Origin: Lachnospiraceae bacterium
GTDB lineage: Bacteria > Bacillota > Clostridia > Lachnospirales > Lachnospiraceae
Length of the DNA: 64,000 nt
Reading direction: 5' to 3'
Assembly (NCBI GenBank): GCA_045576455.1
Contig: JAZNGM010000001.1
Span: 267,604-331,603, forward strand
Shown: positions 2,469-39,666 of the stretch, one piece after another
How positions within the stretch are numbered: position 1 is the stretch's first letter
Layout of the letters: every line of letters starts with the position of its first letter
Notes under the pieces: model-generated
What the model saw: the letters and a program-made list of their open reading frames with translations, nothing else
Databases searched by the model: none
What the model was told of the DNA's origin: nothing
Program-made: the position numbers and the translations under genes

Positions 2469-4052
2469 ATGCCATCAGCTATTATAAGCAATTTTGTTAA
2501 TAAAGTGAATAAGAATGCGCTGATTGCTTTCTTTTCGGCAATGGTTTCAGGAGTATTAACACATCTGTTTATTATGACTAATAAGGTGTTTAATTATAAT
2601 GAATTCTCTGTATTATTCCTTGATACAGAAGAAATGACACTTGGAAGGATGGCAGAAGGACGTTGGTTTGTAGGCTTTATCGGCCAACTCATTGGTGATA
2701 ATTACAGTATGCAGATGGTGACCGGCATGATTGGTATTATGCTGCTTGCGGTTTCTGCGGGAATGCTTGTGAGTCTGCTTTCCCTTAAGAGCAGATTGTA
2801 TGCAGTCTTGCTTGGCGGTGTGTTGGTCGTATTTCCTGCGGTAACAAGCTTTATGGCATTTACCCAGCTGGGTGATGCATGGTTTTTGTCAGTGTTTCTT
2901 GCGGTATGGGCAGTGTATATTTGTGAAAGATGGAAATGGGGACATTTTGCAGGCCTTGTTATGATAGGCTTATCGCTTGCCATCCATCAGGCATATGTAT
3001 CGGTTGCCATTGCCGTAATGTTTTTGGTTATATTCAAGGCCGTGTACGAACAGGAAGCGGCGTTAAAAGAGCTGTTTAGAAAAATAATAAGATACCTTGT
3101 GATTCTTGTTGGCGGTTTTGTATTTTATTATATTGGTGTTAAGGTAAGTGTGGCAGTTTTTGATTATAGCTTATCTTCGTATCATGGTATTAATGAAATG
3201 ACCAGCTTCACCATAAGAGGGATTGCCAAAGGCATTGTATATTCATACATTTACTTTTTCGAATATTTCTTTACCACTAAATATTTGTTCTCTTATGTCT
3301 GGGTAGTAGTTGATGTATTGTTGGCATTAACACTATTGTATTATGTGGTGCGTTCTTCTGTTTCGGGCTTTAAAGGCGGAAATAAGAGTAACGGAATTCT
3401 GAGAATATTATTAGTTGTCTTGCTTCCTCCTGGAATGAACGGTTTGCCGGTGCTTCTTGCTGACAGGGTCGGCGACGGTGTTGACCGCTACATGATGTAT
3501 TCACTCGTTATGTTGTGGGTGCTTATATTATTTGTGGCAGATAGAATGGAAGCGGTTAAGGAAGAGCAATCTACTTTAAAAACACTTTGTCTTTGGGTAA
3601 TAATAGCAGGAATTTGTCTTCATATAGGACATGACTATGTCATGGATAATCAGGCATATTACAGAGCACAGGCGGTTACGGAACAGACGACCTCTTATCT
3701 TAACCGTATTGCGGCAAGAATGGAAGCGGTAGAGGGTTGGAATAAAGATATTCCGGTACATTTTGTGATGGATGGAGAGCTGTTTGGAAGTCAGGATGTA
3801 GCACTTAAGGAGTTTGAAGAACTTGCTGAGCTACGTGGTACGGCATATGAACCGAATTACAGTGCTTCGGGTGTTGCCCGTTTTATGCAGTATTATTTGC
3901 ATTTTCCTGTAAACTTGGCTACCCGGGATCAGATAGTGGCATTAGAAGAAAATATAGATTATCAGCAGATGAGTTTGTACCCGGCAGAAGATTCGGTTAA
4001 AATTATTGACGGAGTTCTTGTGGTAAAATTATCGGAAACAGAAGTAAAATAA
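2469..4052 (+). CDS. Polytopic membrane protein, putative GtrC/Gtr-type-II-like glycan-decorating transferase
   Basis: 527 aa, ~10+ TM helices plus a soluble C-terminal domain. It lies immediately upstream of a GtrB-like GT2. The family assignment comes from architecture and context only. Confidence 0.45.
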   Translation: MPSAIISNFVNKVNKNALIAFFSAMVSGVLTHLFIMTNKVFNYNEFSVLFLDTEEMTLGRMAEGRWFVGFIGQLIGDNYSMQMVTGMIGIMLLAVSAGMLVSLLSLKSRLYAVLLGGVLVVFPAVTSFMAFTQLGDAWFLSVFLAVWAVYICERWKWGHFAGLVMIGLSLAIHQAYVSVAIAVMFLVIFKAVYEQEAALKELFRKIIRYLVILVGGFVFYYIGVKVSVAVFDYSLSSYHGINEMTSFTIRGIAKGIVYSYIYFFEYFFTTKYLFSYVWVVVDVLLALTLLYYVVRSSVSGFKGGNKSNGILRILLVVLLPPGMNGLPVLLADRVGDGVDRYMMYSLVMLWVLILFVADRMEAVKEEQSTLKTLCLWVIIAGICLHIGHDYVMDNQAYYRAQAVTEQTTSYLNRIAARMEAVEGWNKDIPVHFVMDGELFGSQDVALKEFEELAELRGTAYEPNYSASGVARFMQYYLHFPVNLATRDQIVALEENIDYQQMSLYPAEDSVKIIDGVLVVKLSETEVK

Positions 4053-4094
4053 GCAAAGAATAGGATATATTACAGTAACTATAGGAGGTTTTCC

Positions 4095-5048
4095 ATGGAA
4101 AAGATATCATTTGTAATTCCATGTTATCGTTCGCAAAATACAATTGAAAAGGTAGTGGACGACATATATCAGGTTATGGATGAGCATAAAGAATATGAAA
4201 CGGAAATCGTTCTTGTAAATGACAATTCGCCGGATGATGTTTGGAGTGTAATAAGTGCATTAGGTGAAAAAGATTCACGTATTAAAGCAGTGCGCCTTCT
4301 CCGTAATTTCGGACAGCATGCAGCTCTTATGGCAGGCTATAATATTTGCACAGGTGATTATGTTGTGACGATTGACGATGATGGCCAGACACCGGTTGAT
4401 CAGACTTTCATCCTAATGGAAAAACTTCTTGAAGGATTTGATGTTGTATACGGAAAATATGAAGAAAGAAAAGATAATATTTTTAGAAAAATAGGAACAG
4501 GCATTAATAATATGATGTCCCGTTCACTTTTGGGAAAGCCTAAGAATTTACATCTTACCAGTTTTTTTGTGGCTAGAAAAAATGTTATCCGGGAAATTTG
4601 TAATTATAAAAATGCATTCCCGTATATATGGGGATTAATCTTACGTACGACAAAGAGTATTGCGAATGCAACCATTAAACATAATAACCGTTTAGAAGGT
4701 GAATCGGGTTATACGCTAGGAAAATTGATAAGTCTCTGGATGAATGGATTTACGGCTTTTTCCGTAAAACCGTTACGTGTTTCGGCAGGAATAGGAATTG
4801 CCTTTTCCGGATTAGGTATTATAGGGGTAATATATGTGATTATTGATAAAATATTACATCCCCATATAGCAGCAGGATACAGTTCCATGATGTCGGTATT
4901 GTTGGTTATAGGCGGTTTGCTTTTGCTGTCCATGGGGTTAATCGGAGAATACATCGGCCGTATTTATATGTGCATTAATGCTACACCACAGTATATTGTA
5001 AGAGATACAGTTAATCTTGACGAAGAAGATAAGAAGGAAAAGCAGTAG
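4095..5048 (+). CDS. GT2 polyprenyl-phosphate glycosyltransferase (GtrB/CsbB/ArnC-like)
   Basis: N-terminal GT-A domain (FVIPCYRSQNTIEKVV, VLVNDNSPDD, TIDDDGQ) and two C-terminal TM helices (GIGIAFSGLGIIGVIYVII; MMSVLLVIGGLLLLSMGLIGEYI). This is the typical GtrB architecture. Confidence 0.85.
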   Translation: MEKISFVIPCYRSQNTIEKVVDDIYQVMDEHKEYETEIVLVNDNSPDDVWSVISALGEKDSRIKAVRLLRNFGQHAALMAGYNICTGDYVVTIDDDGQTPVDQTFILMEKLLEGFDVVYGKYEERKDNIFRKIGTGINNMMSRSLLGKPKNLHLTSFFVARKNVIREICNYKNAFPYIWGLILRTTKSIANATIKHNNRLEGESGYTLGKLISLWMNGFTAFSVKPLRVSAGIGIAFSGLGIIGVIYVIIDKILHPHIAAGYSSMMSVLLVIGGLLLLSMGLIGEYIGRIYMCINATPQYIVRDTVNLDEEDKKEKQ

Positions 5049-5071
5049 AACAATAAAAGGGGAGGTTTGGG

Positions 5072-6472
5072 ATGAATCAGATAATGCTTAAGTTACTTGC
5101 TTCGTGGCAGCATAGGGATGGAAATGTAAACACCACGAAGGAATTGCTTGATTGGATTCACGAACTTAATACTACGACAAAGGTTTTAATAGATAAGACA
5201 AGTGTTAATGAAGACTCCTTCTGGTTTTATGATGACTACCGCGGAGAAATATTAAACCGTAAAAGAAGCTTTTTCTCCATAGTAGGAATCCGTTATTTTG
5301 AAAATGAAGAATTTGTAAAAGAACAGCCAATCATCCTGCAAAAGGAGATTGGCTATCTTGGCATTATAGTAAAAGAAATAGACGGCGTGCTTAATTTTCT
5401 TATGCAGGCGAAAATCGAACCGGGGAATGTCAATTGCGTGCAGATTTCACCTACCATACAGGCGACGAAGAGTAATTTTACAAGAGCCCATGGCGGTAGA
5501 ATGCCGTACTATTTTGAATATTTTGAAAAGGCTTCCGAGAACGGAAGAATTATATATGACCAGATACAGTCAGAGCAGGGAAGCCGTTTTTACGGAAAAC
5601 GCAACAGAAACATTATTCTGTTAATTGATAAGGATATTCCTATACATGAGAATTATAAGTGGATGACATTAGGGCAGATTAAAGAACTGATGGCAGTAGA
5701 TAATCTTGTCAATATGGATACCCGTACGGTATTGTCAGGAATACCGTTTGAGACATACCGGTTGAATGCAGAAGATATAGTCAGAGCAGAAGAATATTTT
5801 TCGGATAAAGCATTTTTTAACTCTATTTTCAGGACGGATGTGTCGGAATCCCTTGCAAAAGTGACGCCTGTAATAAATGATTATAAAATGTTCTGTGATG
5901 TGGAACGTATTATGGTGCCGTTGAATCAGCTTGTGGATTGGAAGGTTAATGAATATGGAGTGACTTGTAAGAAGGACGCTGATTTTTCTGTGGGATATTA
6001 TGATATTCATATAAACGGAAGAGAAGTCCAACATTGGCTGCAACCGCTTTTCTGTGCTGAGAGGCAGGCACTTTTTGCCTTGTTTACTTGTGTGGAGAAT
6101 GGGGTTCGTAAATATCTGATATCGCTTTCTCCTGAAATAGGGTGCTTTGATAAGGCTGAGTTCGGACCTACCATCCAGGAAGGTGGAGAATTACACGGTA
6201 GAAGTGAAGAAGAAAAGACTTTATGCAAAGTTCTTGATAAGCATTTGAAAGAACAAAAAGGCATAATGAAGGATGTAATCCTTTCTGAAGAGGGCGGACG
6301 CTTCTATCATGAGCAAAATAGAAACATTATTATTGAAATCGATAAGTCTGAGTTGCCGGTACTTTCTAAGAACTATGTTTGGGTAGATTACAGTTGTCTT
6401 AATTATTTGGTGCAGGTAAATAATGTGCTTAATATTCAACTTAGAAACCTTATGTCGTTGCTAGATTTATAA
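5072..6472 (+). CDS. NDP-hexose (dTDP-4-keto-6-deoxyglucose) 2,3-dehydratase, EvaA/OleV/TylX3 family
   Basis: Signature core EQPIILQKEIGYLGIIVKEIDGVLNFLMQAKIEPGNVNCVQISPTIQATKSNFTRAHGG. Internal two-half duplication (SEQGSRFYGKRNRNIILLIDKD vs SEEGGRFYHEQNRNIIIEIDKS). The ~466 aa size is typical of the family. Confidence 0.85.
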   Translation: MNQIMLKLLASWQHRDGNVNTTKELLDWIHELNTTTKVLIDKTSVNEDSFWFYDDYRGEILNRKRSFFSIVGIRYFENEEFVKEQPIILQKEIGYLGIIVKEIDGVLNFLMQAKIEPGNVNCVQISPTIQATKSNFTRAHGGRMPYYFEYFEKASENGRIIYDQIQSEQGSRFYGKRNRNIILLIDKDIPIHENYKWMTLGQIKELMAVDNLVNMDTRTVLSGIPFETYRLNAEDIVRAEEYFSDKAFFNSIFRTDVSESLAKVTPVINDYKMFCDVERIMVPLNQLVDWKVNEYGVTCKKDADFSVGYYDIHINGREVQHWLQPLFCAERQALFALFTCVENGVRKYLISLSPEIGCFDKAEFGPTIQEGGELHGRSEEEKTLCKVLDKHLKEQKGIMKDVILSEEGGRFYHEQNRNIIIEIDKSELPVLSKNYVWVDYSCLNYLVQVNNVLNIQLRNLMSLLDL

Positions 6473-6509
6473 TGGATATCGGGATTATTAGGTAAGGGAG
6501 AAATATTGG

Positions 6510-7535
6510 ATGCGGATTGGAATTATATGTCCGTCGGAAATTGCTTTCAGACGATTTATGCCGGCGGTGTTAAAAGTAGAAGAAGTCGAATATATTGGCG
6601 TAGCGTATGCTACTCTTTCGGAGTGGTATGGTAAAGATACAAAGATTCAAGAGGGTATGGAAAAAGTAATTGAATCGGAAAGAGAAAAAGCAGAGAACTT
6701 TAGAAATACTTATGGCGGTAAGGTTTTTGAAGGTTACGAAGCCATGCTTAAAAGCGGTGAAATTGATGCTGTTTATATACCTCTTCCACCGGCATTGCAT
6801 TATGCTTGGGCAAAGCTTGCTCTCGATTGCGGATTGCATGTATTTGTGGAAAAGCCATCAACAACAAGACTGGCAGATACAGAGGATTTAATTTTAGTTG
6901 CGTCCCAAAAAGGTCTGGCACTTCATGAGAATTATATGTTTGCATATCATACGCAGCTTGATACGGTTGAAAGCGTAATTAAGGATGGCACTATTGGTAA
7001 GGTAAGGCTAATCCGTATTGATTTTGGATTCCCTAAGCGTCCTATGGGTGATTTCAGATATAACAAAAAGCTTGGTGGCGGAGCACTGCTTGATTGTGGA
7101 GGATATACATTAAAATATGCGGATATGCTTCTTGGCGGCAATGCTAAGATAGCTGCTGCAACGGTTATGAATGACGAAGACTTTGAAGTAGAAATCTTCG
7201 GAACCGCAATATTGTCAGATGACAGCAATAAAACAGTGCAAGTTGCATTTGGTATGGATAATGATTACCGTTGTTCCATTAATGCATGGGGAAGCAAAGG
7301 AACGCTTATCAGTAACCGTATTCTTACGGCACCGGAGGGATTTGCTCCGACTTATTCCATATTTGTAAATGGTAAAGAGGAAGTATATACCATGGAAGCG
7401 GATGATACATTTTATAAATCCATTATGCACTTTGTAAAGTGTGCGAAGGATGAGAAAGTAAGAACCGGAAATTATGAAGCACTTCGTCGTCAGGAACAAC
7501 TGGTTGATGAATTTATGAAAAAAGCAGGCATGTGA
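6510..7535 (+). CDS. Gfo/Idh/MocA-family oxidoreductase, putative NDP-hexose C-3 ketoreductase (KijD10/OleW-like role)
   Basis: N-terminal Rossmann MRIGIICPSEIAFRRF, and the EKP motif in HVFVEKPSTT. Directly follows the 2,3-dehydratase. The family call is firm; the substrate is inferred from context. Confidence 0.65.
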   Translation: MRIGIICPSEIAFRRFMPAVLKVEEVEYIGVAYATLSEWYGKDTKIQEGMEKVIESEREKAENFRNTYGGKVFEGYEAMLKSGEIDAVYIPLPPALHYAWAKLALDCGLHVFVEKPSTTRLADTEDLILVASQKGLALHENYMFAYHTQLDTVESVIKDGTIGKVRLIRIDFGFPKRPMGDFRYNKKLGGGALLDCGGYTLKYADMLLGGNAKIAAATVMNDEDFEVEIFGTAILSDDSNKTVQVAFGMDNDYRCSINAWGSKGTLISNRILTAPEGFAPTYSIFVNGKEEVYTMEADDTFYKSIMHFVKCAKDEKVRTGNYEALRRQEQLVDEFMKKAGM

Positions 7536-7564
7536 TATAAATTTAGTCATTTAGAGAGGGCGAT

Positions 7565-8560
7565 ATGAAACTGAAACGGGATGAGTCATTAGACTTTTTA
7601 AGAGGATTCGGAATTCTCTTGATGGTAATAGGACATATAGGCTTTACTACGGCAGATATATACATATATGCCTTTCATATGCCTTTGTTTTATATGATAT
7701 CCGGTTATCTTGTAAAACCTGATGTTAGAAAGAAGTTTTCTGCCCATGTGGTTTCCAGGGCAAAACGCTTATTGATACCATATTTTTTGTTTGGCTTTGC
7801 GCAGTATATTATATATTTGGGAATTCATGCGTTTAATACCCCGGATGCCAAAGAGTTATTGGTTAATCTGCTTTTGTTTCCAACTAAGGGATTGGCAATA
7901 GCAGAGGCTTTATGGTTTTTGTTTTCTTTATTTTTGATAGAAATAGTCTTTGAATTGTTGCTTAGAATCAAGAATGAGGGATTACGCTTTGTTGTAGTTG
8001 CCGTTGTTGTGGTGGCAGGATTTTTTGTTAATGAAATGCAGTATGAGTTGTTATTTGCTTTGGAAACGGCAATGGTTGGTATACTGTTTTATTATACGGG
8101 TTACCTTATACGCCGGTATAAATTGTTTGATTGTATTCAAAAGGGAAAGACGAAGTTCGTGTTTGGCGGCGTTGCGATGATTTTATTTATGCCTATTACA
8201 TGGCTATGTTATAAAAATGGGCAGATTGCTATGTATTATGGTGTGTATCAAAATGAGTTTATATTTATTTTGGCGGCTTTATTTATGACGGTTTTCTGGT
8301 GGTGTGTAGCCAAGCAGGTTGTTAAAATAAATAAGTTATCGTGGTTTAATGGCTATTTTGTTTTCCTTGGTAAAAATTCAATGCTATTTTTATTACTAAA
8401 TCAGTTTTTTATTTTCTTTTACCGGAAAGTACTTCTGATGGTAATAGAAGATAATAAATGGTTAGTGCATGCAGCAGAGTTATTATTGGTACTTTTATCG
8501 CTTCATGTATTTGCACTTATAACAAATCGTTTGAAGGTATCAAAAATTTGGAGAGGCTGA
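7565..8560 (+). CDS. Acyltransferase-3 family membrane O-acyltransferase
   Basis: LDFLRGFGILLMVIGHIG, then HMPLFYMISGYL, with ~10 TM helices. Confidence 0.8.
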   Translation: MKLKRDESLDFLRGFGILLMVIGHIGFTTADIYIYAFHMPLFYMISGYLVKPDVRKKFSAHVVSRAKRLLIPYFLFGFAQYIIYLGIHAFNTPDAKELLVNLLLFPTKGLAIAEALWFLFSLFLIEIVFELLLRIKNEGLRFVVVAVVVVAGFFVNEMQYELLFALETAMVGILFYYTGYLIRRYKLFDCIQKGKTKFVFGGVAMILFMPITWLCYKNGQIAMYYGVYQNEFIFILAALFMTVFWWCVAKQVVKINKLSWFNGYFVFLGKNSMLFLLLNQFFIFFYRKVLLMVIEDNKWLVHAAELLLVLLSLHVFALITNRLKVSKIWRG

Positions 8561-8563
8561 TAT

Positions 8564-9613
8564 ATGGCTAGAAAGTCTAATTTTGAATTATTGAGAATTA
8601 TAGCAATTATTATTATTATTATGCATCATTATGCGCAAATAGGGTGTAGTGAATTATTGGTTACTAATGTTGTATCCGGGCAACGCTTATTCTCGCAGTT
8701 CCTGTTTATGGGAGGGAAAGTCGGTGTTAATCTGTTTGTGCTTATTTCGGGTTATTTTTTATGCAAGCAGGAATTCAGATTATCTAAGCTTGTAACATTA
8801 TTGCTTTGGATTTTTACTTATTCCGTAGTGTTCATGTGCGTTTTAACGGTATTTTTTGATTATAGGTTTGGCATATTTGAGATTGTACAGAGTTTATTTC
8901 CGGTTACTTTTAACCGATATATTTTTCCGAGTACATATGTCCTTATGTACCTTTTTGTACCGTTTATAAACCATTTTATTAATACTGTTGATAAAAAAAT
9001 GTATCAACGATTTATTTTATTAGGTGGAGTAGTTTTTGTAATATTACCTACGCTGACTGCAATGGATTTTATGGCACCTGATTTGGTGTGGTTTATATAT
9101 TTATATTTGCTTGCAGCGTATATACGTATATATGAACCGTTAAGTAAAATAAAGGCAAAGCATTGGTTATTAGCAGGAAGCGGAATGTATGTCCTATTGT
9201 TCTTATCAATGGTTTTTATGGATTTTGTGGGCTTGTATATTCCGGCGGTAGGTGTTAAAGCAAGTTATTTTATTGGTCAGAATAAGCTGCCTGCAGTATT
9301 AAGTGCAGTATTACTTTTTGTCGGTTTTAGCCGTTTGGAAATGAAAACCATCAAGTGTATTAATTATATAGGTGGATGTACGTTTGGTATTTTTTTGTTC
9401 CACACATTTCCTTGGGATTATAATTTTTTGTGGATACGCTTGCTAAAAACTACGGACTATATTGGAAAGACATCGTTCTATCTGCATGCCGTGTTAAGTG
9501 TTCTTTTGGTGCTTTGCTTAGGACTTTTATTTGAAAGTATACGAAGATTTTTATACAAAAAGACACTGGGAAAACTGGTTGCAAGATTAGATAAGAAAGG
9601 TATAAAAGAATGA
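8564..9613 (+). CDS. Acyltransferase-3 family membrane O-acyltransferase
   Basis: FELLRIIAIIIIIMHHY, then VNLFVLISGYFL. Polytopic. Confidence 0.8.
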   Translation: MARKSNFELLRIIAIIIIIMHHYAQIGCSELLVTNVVSGQRLFSQFLFMGGKVGVNLFVLISGYFLCKQEFRLSKLVTLLLWIFTYSVVFMCVLTVFFDYRFGIFEIVQSLFPVTFNRYIFPSTYVLMYLFVPFINHFINTVDKKMYQRFILLGGVVFVILPTLTAMDFMAPDLVWFIYLYLLAAYIRIYEPLSKIKAKHWLLAGSGMYVLLFLSMVFMDFVGLYIPAVGVKASYFIGQNKLPAVLSAVLLFVGFSRLEMKTIKCINYIGGCTFGIFLFHTFPWDYNFLWIRLLKTTDYIGKTSFYLHAVLSVLLVLCLGLLFESIRRFLYKKTLGKLVARLDKKGIKE

Positions 9614-10497
9614 GAATAACAATCCTTGGAGCTAACAGTTATATAGCAAGAAATCTAATCCATTATATAAATGTACAGGGAAAAGATGAGCTTTTTCTTT
9701 ATGATTATCAGGAAGAACATCTTGATAATGCTCCTAATTATCAACAACTCAATATTCTTGATGCAGAAAAAGTACAAGCAGTTCGTTTAGATGTGGATAT
9801 TGTCTACATGTTTGTGGGTAAAACAGGAACCATGCAGGGATTTGAAGATTATTCTTCCTACATTGATATAAATGAAAAGGCCTTGCTTAATGTGTTAACT
9901 GCGTATAGAAAATGCAATTCCAAAGCTAAAATTGTGTTCCCGTCAACACGCCTTGTATACCATGGCGTGGAAGGTCCGCTCAAAGAAGAGGCGGAAAAGG
10001 AATATAAGACTATTTACGCAATCAATAAGTATGCATGCGAACAATATCTTAAGATGTATAATGCGGTGTTTGGTGTGCAGTATGTAACGGTAAGGATTTG
10101 CGTGCCTTATGGCACCATGATTGCAAATGCGTCTTCTTACGGTACGGCAGAATTTATGCTTTCCAAAGCAAAAGAAGGTGCGGATATCACACTATATGGT
10201 GGTGGTACGGTAAGAAGAACACTGATTCATATGTTGGATTTATGCGCGGTTCTTTATCTTGTGGGAAAAACAGACCAATGTAAAAACGATACTTATAATA
10301 TCGGTGGTGAAGACTATAGCTTAAAAGAAATGGCAGAAAAAATTGCCGTTAAGTATGGTATACATGTAACCGATGTGCCGTGGCCGGAAGCAGCGCTTAA
10401 GATTGAGTCCGGAGATACGGTGTTTGACGATACTAAATTACAACGATGTATAAATTATCAATATCAATATAGTTTTGATAAGTGGATTGAAGCGTAA
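9610..10497 (+). CDS. Extended SDR, RmlD-like NDP-4-ketohexose 4-reductase
   Basis: ILGANSYIARNL (compare RmlD TGANGQLGREL), PSTRLVYHG (compare STDYVFDG), and the catalytic YAINK (YxxxK). 295 aa. ATGA start/stop overlap with the upstream gene. Confidence 0.6.
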   Translation: MRITILGANSYIARNLIHYINVQGKDELFLYDYQEEHLDNAPNYQQLNILDAEKVQAVRLDVDIVYMFVGKTGTMQGFEDYSSYIDINEKALLNVLTAYRKCNSKAKIVFPSTRLVYHGVEGPLKEEAEKEYKTIYAINKYACEQYLKMYNAVFGVQYVTVRICVPYGTMIANASSYGTAEFMLSKAKEGADITLYGGGTVRRTLIHMLDLCAVLYLVGKTDQCKNDTYNIGGEDYSLKEMAEKIAVKYGIHVTDVPWPEAALKIESGDTVFDDTKLQRCINYQYQYSFDKWIEA

Positions 10498-10511
10498 GTT
10501 GGAGATTAATA

Positions 10512-11645
10512 ATGAAGCAGAGACTGGATTATATCGACGGAATCAGAGGAATCGCCTGTATTCTTGTTATGGCGTATCACTATAATGTATTTTTTGGTAA
10601 TGCCTTCTGGGGAACGGATTTTCTCGCAGATAAATTGGATATAGTATATAACGGTGCTTATTATGTAAGATTCTTCTTTATGATAAGTGCGTTTTTTGTG
10701 GCTCTTTCCTTTTTCCGGTCAGTATCGGAAAATAAAGTGGCGCTGACGGTTGTGAAAAGGTACCTTCGGTTATCCGTTCCGGTTTTTGCTGCATCCCTGA
10801 TTATATTTGTTATGGAGCATTGCGGTGTTTTTACAAATCATTTATTGGGGGCGCTTACAAATGATCCGGACATTTTGACAAGTTTTCAGAAAAAGCATAC
10901 CCTTTTCGAGGTGTTTTCTACCTCCTTCTGCAGAACTATTTTTATGGGAGAATGTAGCTTTAATAATAACTTCTGGATGATGGAGTGTCTTTTCTGGGGT
11001 GATTTATTTGCAATGTTGCTTGCGCTTATCACCAGAGGGCAAGGAAAAATAAAAATCGCCATTTATACCTTGGCAATTACTTTTTCGCTTCTTATGAATG
11101 ATAATTATCTGCCGTTTATTGTAGGAACAGTGGTGGCGGATTGGTATTATAATTCATCAAAAGGTGCAGAGAAAAATAGTGCTAAATCTGTGTTATGCTA
11201 TGGATTGCTAATGCTTGCCGGTATTGTGTTTGTTGAATTGAAACCGGAAATGTATGGTTATATATATACACATAATCTTGCTAAATTGCCGGAAACGCAA
11301 TTTTTGTTAAATGGAAATTTCTACAATACGATTTCACTGTCCATGGTTTTTGTAGCTGTGTTACGTCTGAAATTTGTGCAAAAAGTCCTGGCGTTTAAAC
11401 CATTTGTATCGATCGGGAAAATATCATACTATGTATTTTTACTGCATTGGCCTATTATCTGCTCATTGTCTGCCGGATTGTTCAGAAGATTTGCGACGGT
11501 AGATAATCAGGTGACGGCTGTAAGAATAATTTTTGCGGTTACGTTACTTGTGGTTATTGCGGTATCTACATTAATGACATATCTTTTCGACCGCAAGGTG
11601 AATAAATTTACGGGCATTGTGTTAAGAAAGTGGGAAAAGGAATAA
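10512..11645 (+). CDS. Acyltransferase-3 family membrane O-acyltransferase
   Basis: LDYIDGIRGIACILVMAYHY, then RFFFMISAFFV. Polytopic. Confidence 0.8.
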   Translation: MKQRLDYIDGIRGIACILVMAYHYNVFFGNAFWGTDFLADKLDIVYNGAYYVRFFFMISAFFVALSFFRSVSENKVALTVVKRYLRLSVPVFAASLIIFVMEHCGVFTNHLLGALTNDPDILTSFQKKHTLFEVFSTSFCRTIFMGECSFNNNFWMMECLFWGDLFAMLLALITRGQGKIKIAIYTLAITFSLLMNDNYLPFIVGTVVADWYYNSSKGAEKNSAKSVLCYGLLMLAGIVFVELKPEMYGYIYTHNLAKLPETQFLLNGNFYNTISLSMVFVAVLRLKFVQKVLAFKPFVSIGKISYYVFLLHWPIICSLSAGLFRRFATVDNQVTAVRIIFAVTLLVVIAVSTLMTYLFDRKVNKFTGIVLRKWEKE

Positions 11646-12698
11646 ATGAAGAAAAATTATCCGGAAATAACCAAATTAAGAGGGTTCGCTATTTTGATGG
11701 TTTTGTTATACCATTCAATAATCGTATATCCTATTGATTTACGCGCCATCGGCTGGTGTGCTAATTTAGCCGATGTTTTGTGGCATATTGAGATGCCGCT
11801 CTTCTTTTTGGTGTCCGGTTTTTGCTTTTCGTATGAAGGGAAATATTCTTCGTACATCGTAAAAAAAGTAAAAAGAATATTAATACCCCATTTGGTATTT
11901 GGAATAGTAGACTTATTGTTCCGCGTATTGCCGCAGTATGTGCCTTTCATGAGTAAACTGGTTAACAAGGAAGCAGATGTAATAGATGGTGCGAAAGACT
12001 TTTTGGTTTATGCAAGCATTGATCCGTTCTTACGTTCCTTATTTATTATGTTTTTGGTATTTCCTATTGTTTCCCGGTTGATTAATAAAGGAAAGATATA
12101 TAAATACCTTGTATGTGCAGGCGCATTGCTGCTATATGTTTTCTGCGATAATATTACTAATATAATGGCGTTATCTTATTTTGCCAGATTTTTTGTTTTT
12201 TTCCTGGTTGGACATGTTATCAGGGAAAATGGTTATGAGAAAATTAAGACAATTTTATTGCGCCCGCTTATTATTCTGTCAGGCATGGTGCTTTCCGTAC
12301 TTTCGTTTGTGTGCTTTTTGCTTCCGGGAATGAAAACGGTAAGAGAAATATCCGGTATAGAATCGATGCTTATACTAATTGCTGCCTTATCTGGAGCACT
12401 GGTGATTTATGCGGTTGCGAACATGCCGATGGGAATAGTGGACCGTTTTGTTAATATGGCAGGTAATTATTCATTGCAGCTCTATTTGCTGGGTGGTTAT
12501 GTACTGGTACTTTCGCGGGTAATAGTGGTTACCTATATGAAGATTACATTGCCGGTGCCGGTGATTTTGTTAAATTTTATTATTGATGTATCAGTAATGT
12601 ATGTATTGATTCATTTTATCATCAGAAAAGTAAGCTTGTTCTGCTTTTTGACGGGTCTTACATATAAGAAGAAAAGTAAAACGGAAAGGATATCGTAA
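11646..12698 (+). CDS. Acyltransferase-3 family membrane O-acyltransferase
   Basis: ITKLRGFAILMVLLYHS, then EMPLFFLVSGFCF. Polytopic. Confidence 0.8.
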   Translation: MKKNYPEITKLRGFAILMVLLYHSIIVYPIDLRAIGWCANLADVLWHIEMPLFFLVSGFCFSYEGKYSSYIVKKVKRILIPHLVFGIVDLLFRVLPQYVPFMSKLVNKEADVIDGAKDFLVYASIDPFLRSLFIMFLVFPIVSRLINKGKIYKYLVCAGALLLYVFCDNITNIMALSYFARFFVFFLVGHVIRENGYEKIKTILLRPLIILSGMVLSVLSFVCFLLPGMKTVREISGIESMLILIAALSGALVIYAVANMPMGIVDRFVNMAGNYSLQLYLLGGYVLVLSRVIVVTYMKITLPVPVILLNFIIDVSVMYVLIHFIIRKVSLFCFLTGLTYKKKSKTERIS

Positions 12699-12700: not shown

Positions 12701-13735
12701 ATGGGATATGCACTTTTGGCGGTACTGCTTATAGTTGTGCCGTTTGTTTGCGGGATGATTCCTTTATCTCTTATGCATGAAGAACACAAGAGTATACTGG
12801 GTACATATGTGTATGGATGGTTTGTTGTTTTTGCCCTGTTCCAGCTTACGGCCATTCCTTGCATAATACTAAAAACGCGGTTTACGACGCTTTGCATTGT
12901 ATTTGGTATTGTGTTATTGCTCTATATGGTTTTGTCCTGTTTTAAATTTAAGATTGTGCCGGACTTAGTGTCACGTGCCATGGCAGGATATAAAGAATTG
13001 CCGCTCATTGCCAAAATCGGCTGGGCTGTAGTTATAATCGCCTTGGCTGTCCAGATGGTATTTTTGGTATTTAATGAATATATCGATGGGGATGATGCGT
13101 ATTATCTGGTGGTATCGCTTGACTCCATTAAATTTGAAACGATGTATTTGAGAAATCCGTATACAGGCTATCCGTATGGCGGCGTAGATATACGGCATGC
13201 ACTTTCCCCGGTACCGCTTTTTATAGCGTTTTTATCTAAGGTGACAGGTGTGCATTCAACGATTGTAGCGCATTCTGTTTTGGGACCGGCATTTATCGGC
13301 CTGATGTATGGTATTTATACGTTGCTTGGCAGAAAATTGTTTAAGGATAACCGCAAGTGGAACTGTGTGTTTGTGCTGTTTGTTATGGCTTTTTATGTGT
13401 TCGGACATGTATCCTTATATACGGCGGAAACTTTTGCATATACAAGGACCTGGCAGGGAAAATCAATGCTTGCCAATCTGGTTGTGCCGGCATTGTTTTT
13501 ATCCATCCTTTACCTACATGAAAAGTATGCGCGCACCGGTGAGTGGATATTTCTTTTCCTCTTGACTATTGCAGCAGTATTTACTACGAGTGTTGCGGTA
13601 GTGTTTGTTCCGGTAATGTTGTTTATTACTGCGATATTATTGTATCTTAATAAGGGTAATAAAAAGGATTTATTGAAGATGGCAGTTTTACTGGTGCCGT
13701 GTCTGATATTTGGCTTTTTATACATTATGAATTGA
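12701..13735 (+). CDS. Polytopic membrane protein of unknown function (GT-C-like or polymerase-like candidate)
   Basis: 344 aa, ~9-10 TM helices, acidic loop motif NEYIDGDDAYYLVVSLD after the early helices. Packed tightly in the operon. Confidence 0.45.
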   Translation: MGYALLAVLLIVVPFVCGMIPLSLMHEEHKSILGTYVYGWFVVFALFQLTAIPCIILKTRFTTLCIVFGIVLLLYMVLSCFKFKIVPDLVSRAMAGYKELPLIAKIGWAVVIIALAVQMVFLVFNEYIDGDDAYYLVVSLDSIKFETMYLRNPYTGYPYGGVDIRHALSPVPLFIAFLSKVTGVHSTIVAHSVLGPAFIGLMYGIYTLLGRKLFKDNRKWNCVFVLFVMAFYVFGHVSLYTAETFAYTRTWQGKSMLANLVVPALFLSILYLHEKYARTGEWIFLFLLTIAAVFTTSVAVVFVPVMLFITAILLYLNKGNKKDLLKMAVLLVPCLIFGFLYIMN

Positions 13736-13748: not shown

Positions 13749-14552
13749 ATGACGGATATTATTAAGTCTGTTTTAACTATATATCGTGATTATGCCGGTG
13801 CCAGTGCGTACATGATTATTGCACTGGTTGCGCTTGTGTACTTATTTGTTACGGAAAAAGATAAAACGGTCAAAATGGCACTGATATATGTGTCAATGGG
13901 ATTGTTGGTTCTCTTCTTTATTCCGGTTTATGCTTACGTGGTAATAGAGTTCTTTTTGGAGTATGAAGTTTATTATCGTATGTTATGGTTTGTTCCGTAT
14001 GCAGCATTGGTTGCCTATGCGGGAGTCAGATTATTAATGCGTACAATGGGATTAATAAGAAGAGTGGTGCTGGTGGTTCTTTTTGCGGCGATGCTTTTAG
14101 GAACCGGTAGCTGTGTGTTTACGGATGGAACTTATAAGCGGGCAGAGAATGCTTATCATGTGCCGCAGGTAGTTATCGATATCGTAGACATGATAAAAAT
14201 TGGGGATTGTACTAATATTTGCGCTTTTCCGCCGGAGATAGTACAATATATCCGTCAGGTGGATCCGGACATTGTTATGTGTTACGGGCGTGAAATGCTG
14301 GTGCCACGATGGGGATATGTCAATCCTGTTTATGCAGAAATGGCGGCTCCGGAATATGATATATGGAAAATACAAAGTGAGGCCAGAAGGCAGCAGGTTA
14401 CTTGTATTGTTCTTGATAACCGTAAGAAGGCAGAGGGAGATTTGCGTAATGAACTATATGCATATCTCGGAACGGCCGGTTGTTATGATGTGTATGTAGA
14501 TGAGTCGTTTTATGATACTTATTATAAAGATTATTTATCGGAGGGGAAATGA
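13749..14552 (+). CDS. Membrane protein with ~4 N-terminal TM helices and a soluble C-terminal domain, unknown function
   Basis: 267 aa. Canonical RBS taggag 8 nt upstream of the ATG. Its stop overlaps the next start (ATGA). Confidence 0.45.
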   Translation: MTDIIKSVLTIYRDYAGASAYMIIALVALVYLFVTEKDKTVKMALIYVSMGLLVLFFIPVYAYVVIEFFLEYEVYYRMLWFVPYAALVAYAGVRLLMRTMGLIRRVVLVVLFAAMLLGTGSCVFTDGTYKRAENAYHVPQVVIDIVDMIKIGDCTNICAFPPEIVQYIRQVDPDIVMCYGREMLVPRWGYVNPVYAEMAAPEYDIWKIQSEARRQQVTCIVLDNRKKAEGDLRNELYAYLGTAGCYDVYVDESFYDTYYKDYLSEGK

Positions 14553-15553
14553 TGAAAGCATTTGATAAAGATTTAAAAATATTGGTTACAGGTGGTGCGG
14601 GATTTATAGGGTATCATCTTTCAGTGCGTTTGCTTGAGGCAGGTGCCAAAAAAGTTATCGGTTTTGATAACATGAATGATTATTATGATACGAATCTCAA
14701 AAAAGACCGTCTTCAAATTCTTAGTAAGTATGAGAATTATTCTTTTATTGAAGGGGATTTGGCAGATGCGGCAAAAATTAATGAGATATTTGCAGAATGT
14801 AAACCGGATGTAGTTATTAATCTGGGGGGACAGGCAGGTGTCCGTTACAGTATTGATAATCCGGAATCATATATACAGTCTAATATTGTAGGATTCTTTA
14901 ATATTCTTGAGGCATGCCGTCATCAACCTGTAAAGCATCTTTTATATGCTTCTTCAAGCTCAGTATACGGAGGAAATGAAAAAGTTCCGTTCTCTACGGA
15001 GGATAAGGTGGACAGGCCGGTAAGCTTATATGCAGCAACCAAAAAGACGGATGAGCTTATGGCGTATGCTTATTGTAAGCTTTATAAGATTAAGGCAACA
15101 GGACTCAGATTTTTTACGGTATATGGTCCTATGGGACGACCGGATATGGCATATTTTAAGTTTGCCAAGAAGATTATGGAAGGGCAACCGATTCAGGTAT
15201 ATAACAATGGAGATATGATGCGTGATTTCACGTACGTGGATGATATTGTTACCGGAATATTCAATATAATAAACAACCCACCGAAGGAAGACTCCCTGGG
15301 GGCTGCCTATAAAGTTTATAATATTGGTAATAACAAACCGGAAAAATTAATGGATTTTATCACTATATTGGAAGAGTGCCTGGATAAAGAAGCAGTTAAG
15401 GAGTTTTTACCGATGCAACCGGGGGATGTATACCAGACTTATGCGGATGTAACAGACTTAATGAATGATTTTGGATTTAAGCCTGATACATCGCTCCGTG
15501 AAGGTTTATCTAAATTTGCGAAATGGTTTAAGGAATACTATCACTATAATTAA
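14549..15553 (+). CDS. UDP-glucuronate 4-epimerase (UDP-GlcA to UDP-GalA), extended SDR
   Basis: VTGGAGFIGYH, YASSSSVYGGNEKVPFSTED, PVSLYAATKK, GLRFFTVYGPMGRPDMAYFKF, RDFTYVDDIV. Closely matches the Gla/Cap1J-type epimerase pattern. Confidence 0.85.
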   Translation: MMKAFDKDLKILVTGGAGFIGYHLSVRLLEAGAKKVIGFDNMNDYYDTNLKKDRLQILSKYENYSFIEGDLADAAKINEIFAECKPDVVINLGGQAGVRYSIDNPESYIQSNIVGFFNILEACRHQPVKHLLYASSSSVYGGNEKVPFSTEDKVDRPVSLYAATKKTDELMAYAYCKLYKIKATGLRFFTVYGPMGRPDMAYFKFAKKIMEGQPIQVYNNGDMMRDFTYVDDIVTGIFNIINNPPKEDSLGAAYKVYNIGNNKPEKLMDFITILEECLDKEAVKEFLPMQPGDVYQTYADVTDLMNDFGFKPDTSLREGLSKFAKWFKEYYHYN

Positions 15554-16693: not shown

Positions 16694-17062
16694 ATGAAAA
16701 AGGTTTCCCTTAAACGTATCATTGCATTGCAAATAATAGTAATCATATATACATTTTCTACCGTCTTTGCAAAGCTTGCAGCACAAGAAAAGTTTTTTTC
16801 GTTTAAATTCATCATTTTTATAATGCTTGAGCTTCTTATATTGTTTATATATGCAGTTTTGTGGCAGCAGATTATTAAGAAAACAGAATTATCCATTGCC
16901 TATATGAATAAGTCTTTGGCACTTTTCTGGTCTATGCTCTGGTCCTTTTTTATATTTGAGGAAAAAATAAGCATAAATAATATAATTGGTGTAGTCATTA
17001 TTTTGCTCGGAATTGTGATAATTAATACAGAGAAAGAGGAGGAAAAGGAATATGTGGAATGA
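16694..17062 (+). CDS. Small 4-TM DMT/EamA-like protein (ArnE/ArnF-like flippase subunit candidate)
   Basis: 122 aa with four hydrophobic helices. Overlaps and pairs with a second small DMT-like ORF. Confidence 0.6.
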   Translation: MKKVSLKRIIALQIIVIIYTFSTVFAKLAAQEKFFSFKFIIFIMLELLILFIYAVLWQQIIKKTELSIAYMNKSLALFWSMLWSFFIFEEKISINNIIGVVIILLGIVIINTEKEEEKEYVE

Positions 17063-17396
17063 TTTGTTTCCGTATGTACTGCTTGTCTTGTCTGTAACGA
17101 TAGCGTCTTTTTCACAGGTGTTGCTTAAGAAAAGTGCGTTAATACAATACGATAATAAGATAAGGGAATATCTTAATATATATGTTATCGCAGGTTATGG
17201 GATGACATTTTTGTCAATGTTGTTATCTCTTTTTGCGTATCGGCTGGTGGCTTATAAAAACGGTCCGCTTATTGAGTCTGCGGGGTTTGTCATTGTAATG
17301 ATATTGAGTCTTTTGTTTTTTAAAGAGAAGATAACCGTGAGAAAGTGGCTGGGAAGCTTTTTAGTTGTAATCGGAATGGTTGTTTTTTATCTGTAA
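17052..17396 (+). CDS. Small 4-TM DMT/EamA-like protein (ArnE/ArnF-like flippase subunit candidate)
   Basis: 114 aa with four helices. 11-nt overlap with the preceding paralogous-type ORF. Confidence 0.6.
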   Translation: MWNDLFPYVLLVLSVTIASFSQVLLKKSALIQYDNKIREYLNIYVIAGYGMTFLSMLLSLFAYRLVAYKNGPLIESAGFVIVMILSLLFFKEKITVRKWLGSFLVVIGMVVFYL

Positions 17397-21362: not shown

Positions 21363-22454
21363 ATGGACAACATGAACAGAAGAACATATCTTGTAACAGG
21401 TGGTGCCGGTTTTATTGGTTCCAATTATATCCATTATATGTTCAAAAAATATGGCGACAGTATTAGAATTATTAACGTAGATGCGTTGACTTACGCAGGA
21501 AATCTTGAAAATCTTAAGGATATAGAACAGAAGGAAAACTATTCTTTTGTGCATGCTAATATCTGTGATAAAGAAGCGATAGCTAAGATTTTTGAAGAAA
21601 ATGATATTGACAGGGTAGTACACTTTGCTGCGGAAAGTCATGTTGACAGAAGTATAAGAAATCCGGAGGTTTTTGTACAAACCAATGTTATTGGTACTGC
21701 GGTTATGCTTAATTGTGCAAAAAATGCATGGGAGCTTGAAGACGGAACTTTTAAGGAAGGTAAGAAATTCCTTCATGTATCTACTGATGAAGTGTACGGT
21801 TCCCTTGAAAACGAAGGAGAGTATTTCTACGAAACGACGCCGTATGATCCACATTCTCCTTATTCTGCAAGTAAAGCAGGATCAGATATGCTTGTAAAGG
21901 CATATATGGATACGTACCATTTTCCGGCAAATATTACGAATTGTTCCAATAACTATGGACCATATCAGTTCCCGGAAAAACTGATTCCGCTTATTATTAA
22001 TAATGCACTTCACGGTAAAAAACTTCCGGTTTACGGTGACGGTAAAAATGTACGTGACTGGTTATACGTGGAAGATCATGCAAAGGCCATTGATATGGTT
22101 CAGGAGCAGGGAAAACTGTTTGAAACGTATAATATCGGTGGTCATAATGAAAAGCAGAACATCGAGATTATCAATATTATTATTGAAACGCTCCAGGAAA
22201 TGCTTTCTGATGATGACCCAAGAAAGAGCCTTGTTTCTAAGGATCTTATAACATACGTTGAGGACCGTAAGGGACACGACAGAAGATATGCCATTGCACC
22301 GGACAAGATTAAAAGTGAAATCGGATGGGAGCCGGAAACCTATTTTAAGGAAGGCATCAAACTGACAATTAAATGGTATTTTGAACATGAAGACTGGATG
22401 AAAAATGTAACCAGTGGTGAATACCAGAAGTATTATGAGCAAATGTATAAATAA
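21363..22454 (+). CDS. rmlB: dTDP-glucose 4,6-dehydratase
   Basis: VTGGAGFIGSNY, HVSTDEVYG, YSASKAGSDMLV, NCSNNYGPYQFPEKLIP, RDWLYVEDH. AAGGAG RBS 7 nt upstream. Confidence 0.95.
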   Translation: MDNMNRRTYLVTGGAGFIGSNYIHYMFKKYGDSIRIINVDALTYAGNLENLKDIEQKENYSFVHANICDKEAIAKIFEENDIDRVVHFAAESHVDRSIRNPEVFVQTNVIGTAVMLNCAKNAWELEDGTFKEGKKFLHVSTDEVYGSLENEGEYFYETTPYDPHSPYSASKAGSDMLVKAYMDTYHFPANITNCSNNYGPYQFPEKLIPLIINNALHGKKLPVYGDGKNVRDWLYVEDHAKAIDMVQEQGKLFETYNIGGHNEKQNIEIINIIIETLQEMLSDDDPRKSLVSKDLITYVEDRKGHDRRYAIAPDKIKSEIGWEPETYFKEGIKLTIKWYFEHEDWMKNVTSGEYQKYYEQMYK

Positions 22455-22528
22455 ATACCAGATGGGGACGGGGACACCGTTCCCATTCGGTGTGTAAAAG
22501 TTTAATATATTAACGGGAGGATAGAGAG

Positions 22529-24674: not shown

Positions 24675-24736
24675 CAGGAGAACGTCACAAATTAGCTTTT
24701 GTGTAGTAAAAAAACGTTCCCGGAATGGAGATTGTT

Positions 24737-26295: not shown

Positions 26296-26316
26296 GCACA
26301 TGGGAAAGGAGCCGTT

Positions 26317-29666: not shown

Positions 29667-29702
29667 AAAATATAGATTAGTAAGTCAGGAACAGGTGACA
29701 AG

Positions 29703-31691: not shown

Positions 31692-31705
31692 GATGGAGAC
31701 CAATA

Positions 31706-33667: not shown

Positions 33668-33696
33668 TGAATCTTATAAATGAGGAGGTATACGAA

Positions 33697-37215: not shown

Positions 37216-37228
37216 GGAGAGGATTCGT

Positions 37229-39653: not shown

Positions 39654-39666
39654 GGGAGATTGCAGC

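Follow-up and report, generated by a model that had tools for sequence, protein, structure and literature searches.

Why should a gut bacterium carry, within what looks like a cell-wall glycan locus, a set of enzymes for a 2,6-dideoxyhexose whose closest kin come from antibiotic pathways? The question is raised by a stretch of 64,000 nt from a Lachnospiraceae bacterium (assembly GCA_045576455.1, contig JAZNGM010000001.1, positions 267,604 to 331,603, forward strand). We refer to this whole stretch as the window, and all coordinates are positions within it. An earlier reading made from the letters only (the sequence-only reading) had proposed that it encodes a deoxythymidine diphosphate (dTDP)-2,6-dideoxyhexose pathway inside a wall-glycan locus with an ATP-binding cassette (ABC) transporter and a LytR-CpsA-Psr (LCP) ligase. 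That core proposal was borne out, since both the enzymes and the locus genes were confirmed by homology, and the product of the pathway is likely to be a 2,6-dideoxyhexose. With a confidence only slightly better than even, we further propose that the window holds a wall-polysaccharide decoration module built around this sugar, which would take a lipid-linked route to an LCP-anchored polymer. The whole account rests on sequence and gene order.

Predicted pathway enzymes

The genes assigned to the pathway, and the rmlC gene that accompanies them, are as follows.

5072..6472, + strand: predicted dTDP-4-keto-6-deoxyglucose 2,3-dehydratase of the EvaA/OleV/TylX3 family (466 aa; PF03559, EvaA)
6510..7535, + strand: predicted C-3 ketoreductase for dTDP-3,4-diketo-2,6-dideoxyhexose, KijD10 type, Gfo/Idh/MocA family (341 aa)
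9610..10497, + strand: extended short-chain dehydrogenase/reductase (SDR) of an uncharacterised subfamily, putative dTDP-4-keto-2,6-dideoxyhexose 4-ketoreductase (295 aa; PF01370)
21363..23398, + strand: rmlB (21363-22454) and rmlA (22529-23398), the predicted source of dTDP-4-keto-6-deoxyglucose
24725..25294, + strand: rmlC, predicted dTDP-4-dehydrorhamnose 3,5-epimerase of a rhamnose branch (TIGR01221, 258 bits, cut-off 156)

The product of 5072-6472 matched the Pfam family PF03559 (Hexose_dehydrat) at E 5.4e-121 (401.9 bits, cut-off 25), in two stretches that mark an internal duplication into tandem Nudix-like halves. Its sole relative in the Protein Data Bank (PDB) was EvaA (4j7g, E 1.3e-74), to which both halves aligned. 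EvaA activity needs Glu139 and Glu190 of pocket A (PMC8987622, a 2022 review), and these align with E116 (in MQAKIEPGN) and E168 (in IQSEQGS) of the window protein, each invariant among twenty-six relatives of 60-98% identity. By homology, 5072-6472 is a two-domain nucleoside diphosphate (NDP)-hexose 2,3-dehydratase of predicted activity. The sequence-only reading had assigned it to the same family from its two-half duplication, and the strong family match and retention of both glutamates agree with that assignment.

Both the N- and the C-terminal GFO_IDH_MocA domains are present in the product of 6510-7535. Its best PDB match was KijD10 (3rbv, E 5.7e-57), with the runner-up (1.7e-23) 33 orders of magnitude behind. 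The Lys and Tyr of KijD10 align with K115 (in an EKP motif) and Y199, and both are 100% conserved (73/73 orthologues). We take the catalytic residues of KijD10 to be K102 and Y186, which fits the 18-residue tag offset of the PDB chain. Inositol dehydrogenase and other Gfo/Idh/MocA roles were considered and rejected: the iolG score was 61 bits against a cut-off of 355, with KijD10 far ahead. The earlier assignment of 6510-7535 thus stands, and it is, on this evidence, a KijD10-type sugar C-3 ketoreductase. Enzymes of this class differ in the C-3 hydroxyl that they form, axial with TylC1 and KijD10 and equatorial with Gra-orf26 and OleW. For the rml genes, rmlB and rmlA also exceeded their NCBIfam equivalog cut-offs (TIGR01181, 486 bits against 365, and TIGR01207, 493 bits against 361), and with rmlC all three identifications made earlier for 21363-25294 are upheld.

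No other reductase or aminotransferase able to resolve the 4-keto group was found in the window, and family searches of its open reading frames (ORFs) detected no polyketide synthase (PKS), nonribosomal peptide synthetase (NRPS) or DegT aminotransferase. A gene at 14549-15553 was considered as a second pathway reductase and set aside as UDP-glucuronate 4-epimerase-like. An amino-sugar end product was likewise rejected for the window, which is without a DegT gene; the one aminotransferase encoded there (class I/II, 61068-62264) is read from the other strand, next to a lipid gene cluster.

Homology and conserved residues point to the first three steps of the following route. RmlA and RmlB would supply dTDP-4-keto-6-deoxy-D-glucose, 5072-6472 would take off the C-2 hydroxyl to give dTDP-3,4-diketo-2,6-dideoxyglucose, and 6510-7535 would reduce C-3 to give dTDP-4-keto-2,6-dideoxyhexose. 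The SDR at 9610-10497 may then reduce C-4, yielding a stable dTDP-2,6-dideoxyhexose.

The SDR and the missing rmlD

The SDR had been described as RmlD-like, with the suggestion that it might serve both an L-rhamnose and a 2-deoxy branch. Its identity as an SDR and the motifs quoted for it (GANSYIARNL at residues 7-16, STRLVYHG at 112-119 and YAINK at 136-140) were correct; the likeness to RmlD was not. The protein matched PF01370 (Epimerase) at E 5e-31, and S112, Y136 and K140, the Ser-Tyr-Lys triad of extended SDRs, are invariant. Against PF04321 it scored 31.9 bits, barely over threshold, versus 321 bits for the true RmlD of locus L011 (labels of this form denote related loci that we compared with the window), and there was no TIGR01214 match at 1e-5. 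When a profile of twenty-nine SDR orthologues was run against the PDB, the matches were all to generic extended SDRs, with a best E of 1e-19.

The AlphaFold (AF2) model of the SDR (predicted local distance difference test score 92) has a generic nucleotide-sugar SDR fold. Its structural neighbours were Pal, GalE-type epimerases, 4,6-dehydratases and GDP-4-keto-6-deoxymannose reductase, all at 22% identity or less, with a TM-score of 0.88 to the Pal and GalE-type structures; RmlD was not among the top sequence or fold matches. The SDR is without the Asp-Glu pair that comes after the catalytic Thr in 4,6-dehydratases. About 1500 homologues make up the family, and the few that are named carry only 'NAD(P)-dependent oxidoreductase' or 'UDP-glucose 4-epimerase'. 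By its sequence the protein is a nucleotide-sugar SDR of its own uncharacterised subfamily, and because sequence and fold are generic, a role as 4-ketoreductase must come from context.

The window does lack a separate canonical rmlD, as had been noted earlier. No ORF in the 64 kb reached TIGR01214, and when three canonical RmlD sequences from Lachnospiraceae were searched against the window by tblastn, a weak match inside rmlB was the only return. In six related loci a canonical RmlD coexists with an orthologue of the SDR, which argues that the SDR is a dedicated partner of the dehydratase-ketoreductase pair and not an RmlD substitute. We therefore rejected its identification as RmlD, to which the PF04321 and TIGR01214 results, the coexistence with canonical RmlD and the different fold neighbours are all opposed, and the idea of one SDR serving both branches finds no support. 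The rmlD of the source strain is probably elsewhere in its genome; in Firmicutes, such as the streptococci, rmlD is often unlinked from rmlABC.

Distribution and synteny across genomes

We scanned genomes at the species level (one genome per species) with two conserved dehydratase peptides. The scan found 325 encoding stretches, placing cassette genes in at least 325 species genomes, and a protein search with the dehydratase gave at least 7999 candidates under E 1e-10. Synteny was counted in the best 80 of the 325 stretches, whose dehydratases are 51-81% identical to that of the window. Orthologues of the SDR, and of an ArnC-like family 2 glycosyltransferase (GT2) encoded just upstream of the dehydratase, were counted at 45% identity or more to the window proteins. 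These loci come mostly from Lachnospiraceae and other gut and rumen Clostridia, with a few from Erysipelotrichaceae, Pelosinus, Synergistaceae and Treponema metagenome-assembled genomes (MAGs). Cultured bacteria that have the triad described below include Pelosinus sp. sgz500959 (L010) and a Lachnospiraceae isolate from mouse gut (L022).

The ketoreductase adjoins the dehydratase in 71 of the 80 loci. An SDR orthologue is present in 33/80 and directly follows the ketoreductase in 28/80, forming a contiguous triad. In 22/80 loci the gene immediately ahead of the dehydratase, and often overlapping it, is the ArnC-like orthologue (45-82% identity), and the full four-gene cassette (ArnC-like, dehydratase, ketoreductase, SDR) occurs in 12/80. 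Around 31 triad loci we tallied 137 flanking genes; these are surface-glycan genes, and no PKS or NRPS is among them. Membrane acyltransferases of the AT3 family are the most frequent (15/137); the others include GT1/GT4 (thirteen), GT2 (nine), Wzx-type flippases (six), IspD (four) and Wzy (two), and DegT aminotransferases account for 2/137.

Two further architectures were found. In one, a DegT aminotransferase stands in place of the SDR (36/80 loci), about eleven of these loci also carrying a thiamine pyrophosphate (TPP) enzyme and others FdtA-like, ATP-grasp or hexapeptide acetyltransferase genes; the sugars made by this architecture are probably amino or branched variants. About eleven Eubacterium/Clostridiales MAG species (L041, L043, L045, L046, L048, L049, L050, L053, L055, L056 and L057) share a conserved array of DegT, TPP enzyme (636 aa), SDR, GT2, an unknown gene, dehydratase (about 10001-11386 of these loci), ketoreductase and three further unknown genes. 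A TPP enzyme beside deoxysugar genes recalls the YerE-type two-carbon branching of yersiniose, and a branched amino-dideoxysugar is possible there. The other architecture (L058, L083 and L084) joins the dehydratase and ketoreductase to a diverged RmlC-like gene (43-44% identity) and a different SDR, in a gene order that resembles OleV/W/L/U.

Most of the contiguous triads (26/28) stand without an epimerase gene next to them; in L022 and L035 an RmlC homologue touches the triad. The SDR-type triad could therefore, perhaps, make a sugar of the D series.

One locus falls outside the expected taxonomy. L068, from an 'uncultured Bacteroides sp.' MAG, carries a GT2/dehydratase/ketoreductase/SDR cassette at a GC content of 34.7%. 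The best 120 relatives of its dehydratase are all of Firmicute type and none is from Tannerella; the contig may be mis-binned or transferred between phyla. On the same evidence we rejected L068 as a tie between the cassette and the digitoxose of Tannerella, to which we return below.

A possible lipid-linked route to the wall polymer

The pathway genes belong to a run of twelve genes (2469-15553) on one strand, separated by gaps of 43 bp or less or joined by 4-bp overlaps. The remaining members of this run and the glycan genes beyond it are listed here.

2469..4052, + strand: GtrII-type polytopic membrane glycosyltransferase, GT-C-like (PF14264 Glucos_trans_II)
4095..5048, + strand: ArnC/GtrB-type putative polyprenyl-phosphate glycosyltransferase, a GT2 with two C-terminal transmembrane (TM) helices (317 aa; ArnC, GtrB)
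7565..8560, + strand: AT3 membrane acyltransferase (a), about eight TM segments (PF01757, E 9e-32)
8564..9613, + strand: AT3 membrane acyltransferase (b), absent in L002 (PF01757, E 1e-18)
10512..11645, + strand: AT3 membrane acyltransferase (c) (PF01757, E 5e-25)
11646..12698, + strand: AT3 membrane acyltransferase (d) (PF01757, E 1e-20)
12701..13735, + strand: DUF6077 polytopic membrane protein, about nine TM segments (344 aa; PF19554, E 6e-94)
13749..14552, + strand: membrane protein of the same gene array, three to four hydrophobic segments (267 aa)
14549..15553, + strand: UDP-glucuronate 4-epimerase-like SDR, outside the deoxysugar pathway (5u4q, 6zl6)
16694..17062 and 17052..17396, + strand: two overlapping small 4-TM EamA-type proteins, candidate flippase (PF00892, E 2-3e-7)
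25300..27609, + strand: ABC exporter of Wzm (25300-26295; PF01061) and Wzt (26317-27609; PF00005 and PF14524)
27627..38194, + strand: polymer assembly genes by Pfam, with a methyltransferase-domain protein, several GT2s (two of about 650 aa) and a phosphoglucomutase
38250..39653, + strand: initiating phosphoglycosyl transferase, Bac_transf (PF02397, E 4e-73)
39643..40836, + strand: LCP ligase (PF03816, E 6e-33)
40891..41826, + strand: GT2 (PF00535)

The sequence-only reading had set the pathway among an initiating transferase, GT2s, a Wzm/Wzt exporter and an LCP ligase rather than in a polyketide cluster. Pfam matches support each of these genes, and the absence of PKS and NRPS genes agrees. 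What it overlooked were the ArnC/GtrB-like, GtrII-like and ArnE/F-like genes, and these alter the predicted route by which the sugar is incorporated.

The GtrII-type gene, the first of the array, matched PF14264 at E 4e-34 (118 bits, cut-off 30). Its product has about eleven hydrophobic segments and a soluble C-terminal part; no relative with a solved structure was found for it. The gene is kept upstream of the dehydratase in L001-L007. We also asked whether a GT-C-like partner sets loci that have the ArnC-like gene apart from those that do not, and dropped this criterion, as large polytopic proteins are present in both sets.

Between the GtrII-type gene and the dehydratase, and ending 24 bp upstream of the latter, lies the ArnC-like GT2. 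It gave full-length matches to two solved polyprenyl-phosphate glycosyltransferases, ArnC (9bhc, E 5e-41) and GtrB (5ekp, E 3e-34), and its TM segments are at residues 232-250 and 265-283. Its NCBIfam scores (ArnC 170 bits, PgfS 155 bits) are both under the equivalog cut-offs, and it is therefore best regarded as a relative with its own specificity. The EamA pair is 1.1 kb past the operon, beyond a convergent GDSL-like gene; such a pair is also found close to the cassette in L009, L027 and L047. With an ArnC/GtrB-type GT2 and a GtrII-type transferase upstream and an ArnE/F-like pair downstream, the arrangement suggests extracytoplasmic addition from a lipid-linked donor. Three-component lipid-linked glycosylation of side chains is an established mechanism (PMC11127046).

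In the route that we favour, the ArnC/GtrB-like enzyme (4095-5048), which adjoins the dehydratase in 22 species, would load the deoxysugar onto undecaprenyl phosphate (Und-P), the EamA pair (16694-17396) would flip the lipid-linked sugar across the membrane, and the GtrII-type enzyme (2469-4052) would add it as a side chain outside the membrane. The GT2s would build the acceptor polymer, which would leave the cell through Wzm/Wzt and become attached to peptidoglycan by the action of the LCP ligase. Carriage of the sugar on a polyprenyl-phosphate donor has, in our estimate, a little more than an even chance of being right, and for the LCP-anchored polymer of this locus as the acceptor we would put the chances at even.

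The four AT3 genes are interleaved with the pathway genes, and orthologues of AT3 (c) adjoin the ArnC-like/dehydratase cassette in eight other species loci. Up to four AT3 enzymes may O-acylate the glycan, perhaps the deoxysugar itself. Chromomycin offers a comparison: its 2,6-dideoxysugars D-oliose and L-chromose B are acetylated by CmmA, also an AT3 enzyme (PMC9558356). In the metagenomic strain L002, positions 8571-9558 of the window (AT3 b) are cleanly missing from DNA that is 96-99% identical on both sides, which represents strain-level variation in glycan acylation. More tentatively, and at a little under even chances, we suggest that the four-gene cassette, which is common in gut and rumen Clostridia, makes an Und-P-linked 2,6-dideoxyhexose and so puts acid-labile, O-acylated 2-deoxy sugars on commensal walls.

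Several observations weigh against this account. We know of no polyprenyl-phosphate glycosyltransferase that uses a dTDP-sugar, and the UDP-glucuronate 4-epimerase-like gene in the same operon means that the ArnC-like enzyme could instead make Und-P-linked galacturonic acid. Only 4/80 loci pair the cassette with a GtrII homologue, and the similarity of the EamA pair to ArnE/ArnF is weak (E 3e-8, under the cut-off). About 16 of the 33 SDR loci are without an ArnC-like gene and flanked by Leloir glycosyltransferases and Wzx/Wzy; direct use of the dTDP-sugar clearly occurs in loci other than the window. As to the SDR, its cofactor motif GANSYIA is atypical, its sequence and fold fit reductase and epimerase alike, and the case for it as the C-4 reductase is drawn from synteny and from the lack of an alternative enzyme in the window. 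L003 and L006 (81% identity) keep the module but are without the SDR, with an aminotransferase and a formyltransferase nearby. Lastly, the donors listed for three-component systems are glucose, galactose and pentofuranoses (PMC11127046).

Alternative explanations

The alternative that survives best, which we consider unlikely, keeps the same pathway and changes the mode of incorporation: a cytoplasmic Leloir GT2 would use dTDP-2,6-dideoxyhexose directly in the chain or repeat unit, and the ArnC-like, GtrII-type and EamA genes would serve glucose or galacturonic acid. Known polyprenyl-phosphate glycosyltransferases use UDP-sugars, and Rhizobium RgtE makes a lipid-linked galacturonic acid donor. 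The presence of 14549-15553 in the same array would fit such a donor, and the half or so of related triad loci that are without an ArnC-like gene, flanked by GT1/GT4, GT2, Wzx and Wzy, would fit direct incorporation. However, the conserved neighbour of the ArnC-like orthologue group is the dehydratase, directly downstream in those 22 species, and an orthologue of the UDP-glucuronate 4-epimerase-like gene accompanies the cassette in just a single further species locus (L054).

A second alternative retains the lipid-linked sugar as proposed and gives it another acceptor, such as lipoteichoic acid, a glycolipid or surface proteins (Pgf-like, or flagellin and S-layer). The resemblance of the ArnC-like GT2 to PgfS, which belongs to streptococcal protein glycosylation, speaks for it, as do L001 and L003, in which the module adjoins nonulosonic-acid genes that in Clostridia often serve flagellin glycosylation. 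The sole documented 2,6-dideoxyhexose of a cell surface is, moreover, on a glycoprotein of T. forsythia. We nevertheless judge another acceptor to be quite improbable: the window module is contiguous with the rml/Wzm-Wzt/LCP locus, no flagellin or S-layer gene lies nearby, and GtrII-family enzymes are known for side-chain glycosylation of polysaccharides (PMC11127046).

Of about the same low standing, and if anything slightly lower, is a route like that to L-olivose, in which RmlC would epimerise the 2-deoxy intermediate and one SDR would stand in for RmlD by reducing dTDP-4-keto-rhamnose as well as the 2-deoxy analogue of it. It draws on the presence of RmlC and absence of rmlD in the window and on the RmlC homologues that touch the triads of L022 and L035. 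It sits poorly with the six loci that pair an SDR orthologue with canonical RmlD, with the failure of any profile to make the SDR RmlD-like, with the 26/28 triads that have no adjacent epimerase, and with the existence of a separate RmlC-like set in L058, L083 and L084. The sequence-only reading had equated the window genes with the six activities used for L-olivose in oleandomycin biosynthesis (OleS/E/V/W/L/U). That analogy holds for RmlA, RmlB, the dehydratase, the ketoreductase and the presence of an SDR; an L-olivose route as such is possible and, with 26/28 triads lacking an adjacent epimerase, not indicated.

We give least credence to an end product other than a 2,6-dideoxyhexose, in which the SDR would epimerise or have a different nucleotide sugar as its substrate, and the dehydratase-ketoreductase product would undergo amination or branching by enzymes encoded elsewhere: the DegT loci with their TPP, FdtA-like, ATP-grasp and acetyltransferase genes, and an SDR that neither sequence nor fold classes as a reductase, would allow it, but companions of that kind are not in the 64-kb window, and aminotransferase and SDR loci are largely alternative architectures, as the 2/137 DegT genes among triad neighbours also indicate.

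Other features of the locus

The nearest metagenomic loci match the window with DNA 87-99% identical from position 2362 onward. Upstream of that point, the gene at 551-2245 (minus strand) encodes a 564-aa protein of about twelve TM segments with a 'TDEPLY' loop after the first helix and a GT-C-like look; it has no Pfam or NCBIfam match. L001 and L002 encode a homologue recognisable at the protein level in the same place on the opposite strand, and the DNA of 534-2361 is unalignable. A strong terminator-like hairpin (541-572) lies between convergent genes, and promoter-like sites were no more frequent in the window than in shuffles. The window itself starts inside a GNAT acetyltransferase gene (123-533). 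Ahead of the GNAT counterpart, L001 (1-7231) carries a CBS-nucleotidyltransferase, a PglD-like acetyltransferase, a UDP-GlcNAc 2-epimerase-like protein and a PseB/LegB-like SDR, and the glycan locus probably extends upstream into a nonulosonic-acid pathway.

In L003 and L006 (12467-18044), the series GtrII/ArnC-like/dehydratase/ketoreductase/AT3 is followed by CTP_transf_3, NeuB, a 195-aa formyltransferase, an unknown gene and DegT. These downstream genes belong to a nonulosonic-acid pathway or a 4-formamido-2,4,6-trideoxyhexose variant.

Toward the end of the twelve-gene run, the DUF6077 gene also adjoins or follows the dehydratase in L009, and the protein of 13749-14552 had no Pfam or NCBIfam match. 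The product of 14549-15553 matched 5u4q at E 3e-115 and the Bacillus cereus UDP-glucuronate 4-epimerase (6zl6) at E 2e-53. Its presence points to galacturonic acid as a constituent of the glycan; the window showed no UDP-glucose dehydrogenase.

Two GH25 muramidase genes lie inside the glycan locus. One (17994-21338) encodes 1114 aa with Big_2 and choline-binding repeats, and the other (23376-24674), between rmlA and rmlC, has a SpaA-like domain. The C-terminal glycan-binding domain of Wzt matched PF14524 (Wzt_C) at E 7.5e-41, and within 26317-29666 the Wzt gene is followed by one for a 679-aa protein with an N-terminal methyltransferase domain. The two together suggest that a methyl cap recognised by the exporter controls chain length, in the manner of certain O-antigen and S-layer glycan systems. 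Among the assembly genes, the GT2s gave weak matches to rhamnosyltransferase subfamilies.

Implications

The cassette is widespread. If our account is right, a class of sugar seen as a hallmark of secondary metabolites would be a common unit of surface polymers in Lachnospiraceae and other Clostridia, and acid-labile sugars of this kind may have gone unnoticed on the cells of commensals. A catalogue of 24 monosaccharides from gut commensal glycans includes no 2,6-dideoxyhexose (PMC12413058, 2025). Destruction of 2-deoxy sugars by strong-acid hydrolysis would explain that absence, and the practice of wall sugar analysis would be affected. So would immune and phage recognition, with epitopes that are hydrophobic, O-acylated and acid-labile.

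For the enzymes, Und-P-2,6-dideoxyhexose would be an undescribed type of donor and the window would hold the first three-component system fed by a dTDP-sugar, widening the substrate range of polyprenyl-phosphate glycosyltransferases. The SDR subfamily, with its generic annotations, would gain a function, and the enzymes of the cassette could serve glycodiversification.

Comparison with known systems

The closest enzyme kin of the cassette are in actinomycete antibiotic pathways, namely those to L-olivose in oleandomycin (OleS/E/V/W/L/U), to L-digitoxose in kijanimicin (KijD10) and to chloroeremomycin (EvaA). As in those pathways, a two-domain Nudix-type dehydratase with both glutamates works with a Gfo/Idh/MocA ketoreductase that has the Lys/Tyr pair, RmlA and RmlB provide the feed, and an SDR comes after. 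Unlike them, the window is from a low-GC gut bacterium of Clostridium type and is a surface-glycan locus instead of a PKS cluster. Its terminal SDR is from a different, uncharacterised subfamily, related triads are usually without a dedicated epimerase, and the cassette is coupled to a polyprenyl-phosphate glycosyltransferase and not to a GT1 natural-product glycosyltransferase.

We also compared the window with three-component systems, including GtrA-GtrB-Gtr* of Shigella and Salmonella, the streptococcal GacI/J/K/L, ArnC-ArnE/F-ArnT and the pentofuranose systems (PMC11127046). The window resembles these in its GT2 with two C-terminal TM helices, its small multi-TM flippase candidate and its polytopic GtrII transferase, and in that these genes adjoin an ABC-transporter-dependent polymer locus. 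It differs in the proposed donor, which would derive from a dTDP-2,6-dideoxyhexose, a source not reported for that enzyme class. Its flippase candidate is, moreover, of ArnE/F (EamA) type and not GtrA, and its GT2 is under the ArnC and PgfS cut-offs.

Digitoxose is contained in the S-layer and general protein O-glycan of Tannerella forsythia (PMC5420450, PMC6120980, PMC8550257). Here too an anaerobe that lives in association with a host bears a 2,6-dideoxyhexose on a surface glycoconjugate. That system differs in being a glycoprotein O-glycan of the Bacteroidota rather than a wall polysaccharide of a Firmicute, and its biosynthetic genes are not treated in these three papers.

LCP-anchored, rhamnose-rich polysaccharides of Firmicutes, such as the streptococcal Rgp and group A carbohydrate (GAC), lactococcal rhamnan and the glucorhamnan of Ruminococcus gnavus, share with the window rmlABC, GT2s, Wzm/Wzt, an initiating transferase, an LCP ligase and decoration genes. 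Their known side chains differ, consisting of glucose, N-acetylglucosamine, galactose and glycerol phosphate.

The sequence-only reading had also supposed that a 2,6-dideoxy sugar of this kind was undescribed. For wall polymers of Firmicutes this agrees with our search of the literature, in which we found no 2,3-dehydratase or 2,6-dideoxy sugar in Firmicute polysaccharides; for surface glycans in general it does not, given the digitoxose of T. forsythia. The 2022 review cited above mentions 2,3-dehydratases for antibiotic biosynthesis only (PMC8987622). Set beside these systems, the dehydratase and ketoreductase are ordinary members of their families, and the window departs from what is known in its host, in lying among surface-glycan genes, in its new SDR partner and in being coupled to a polyprenyl-phosphate glycosyltransferase.

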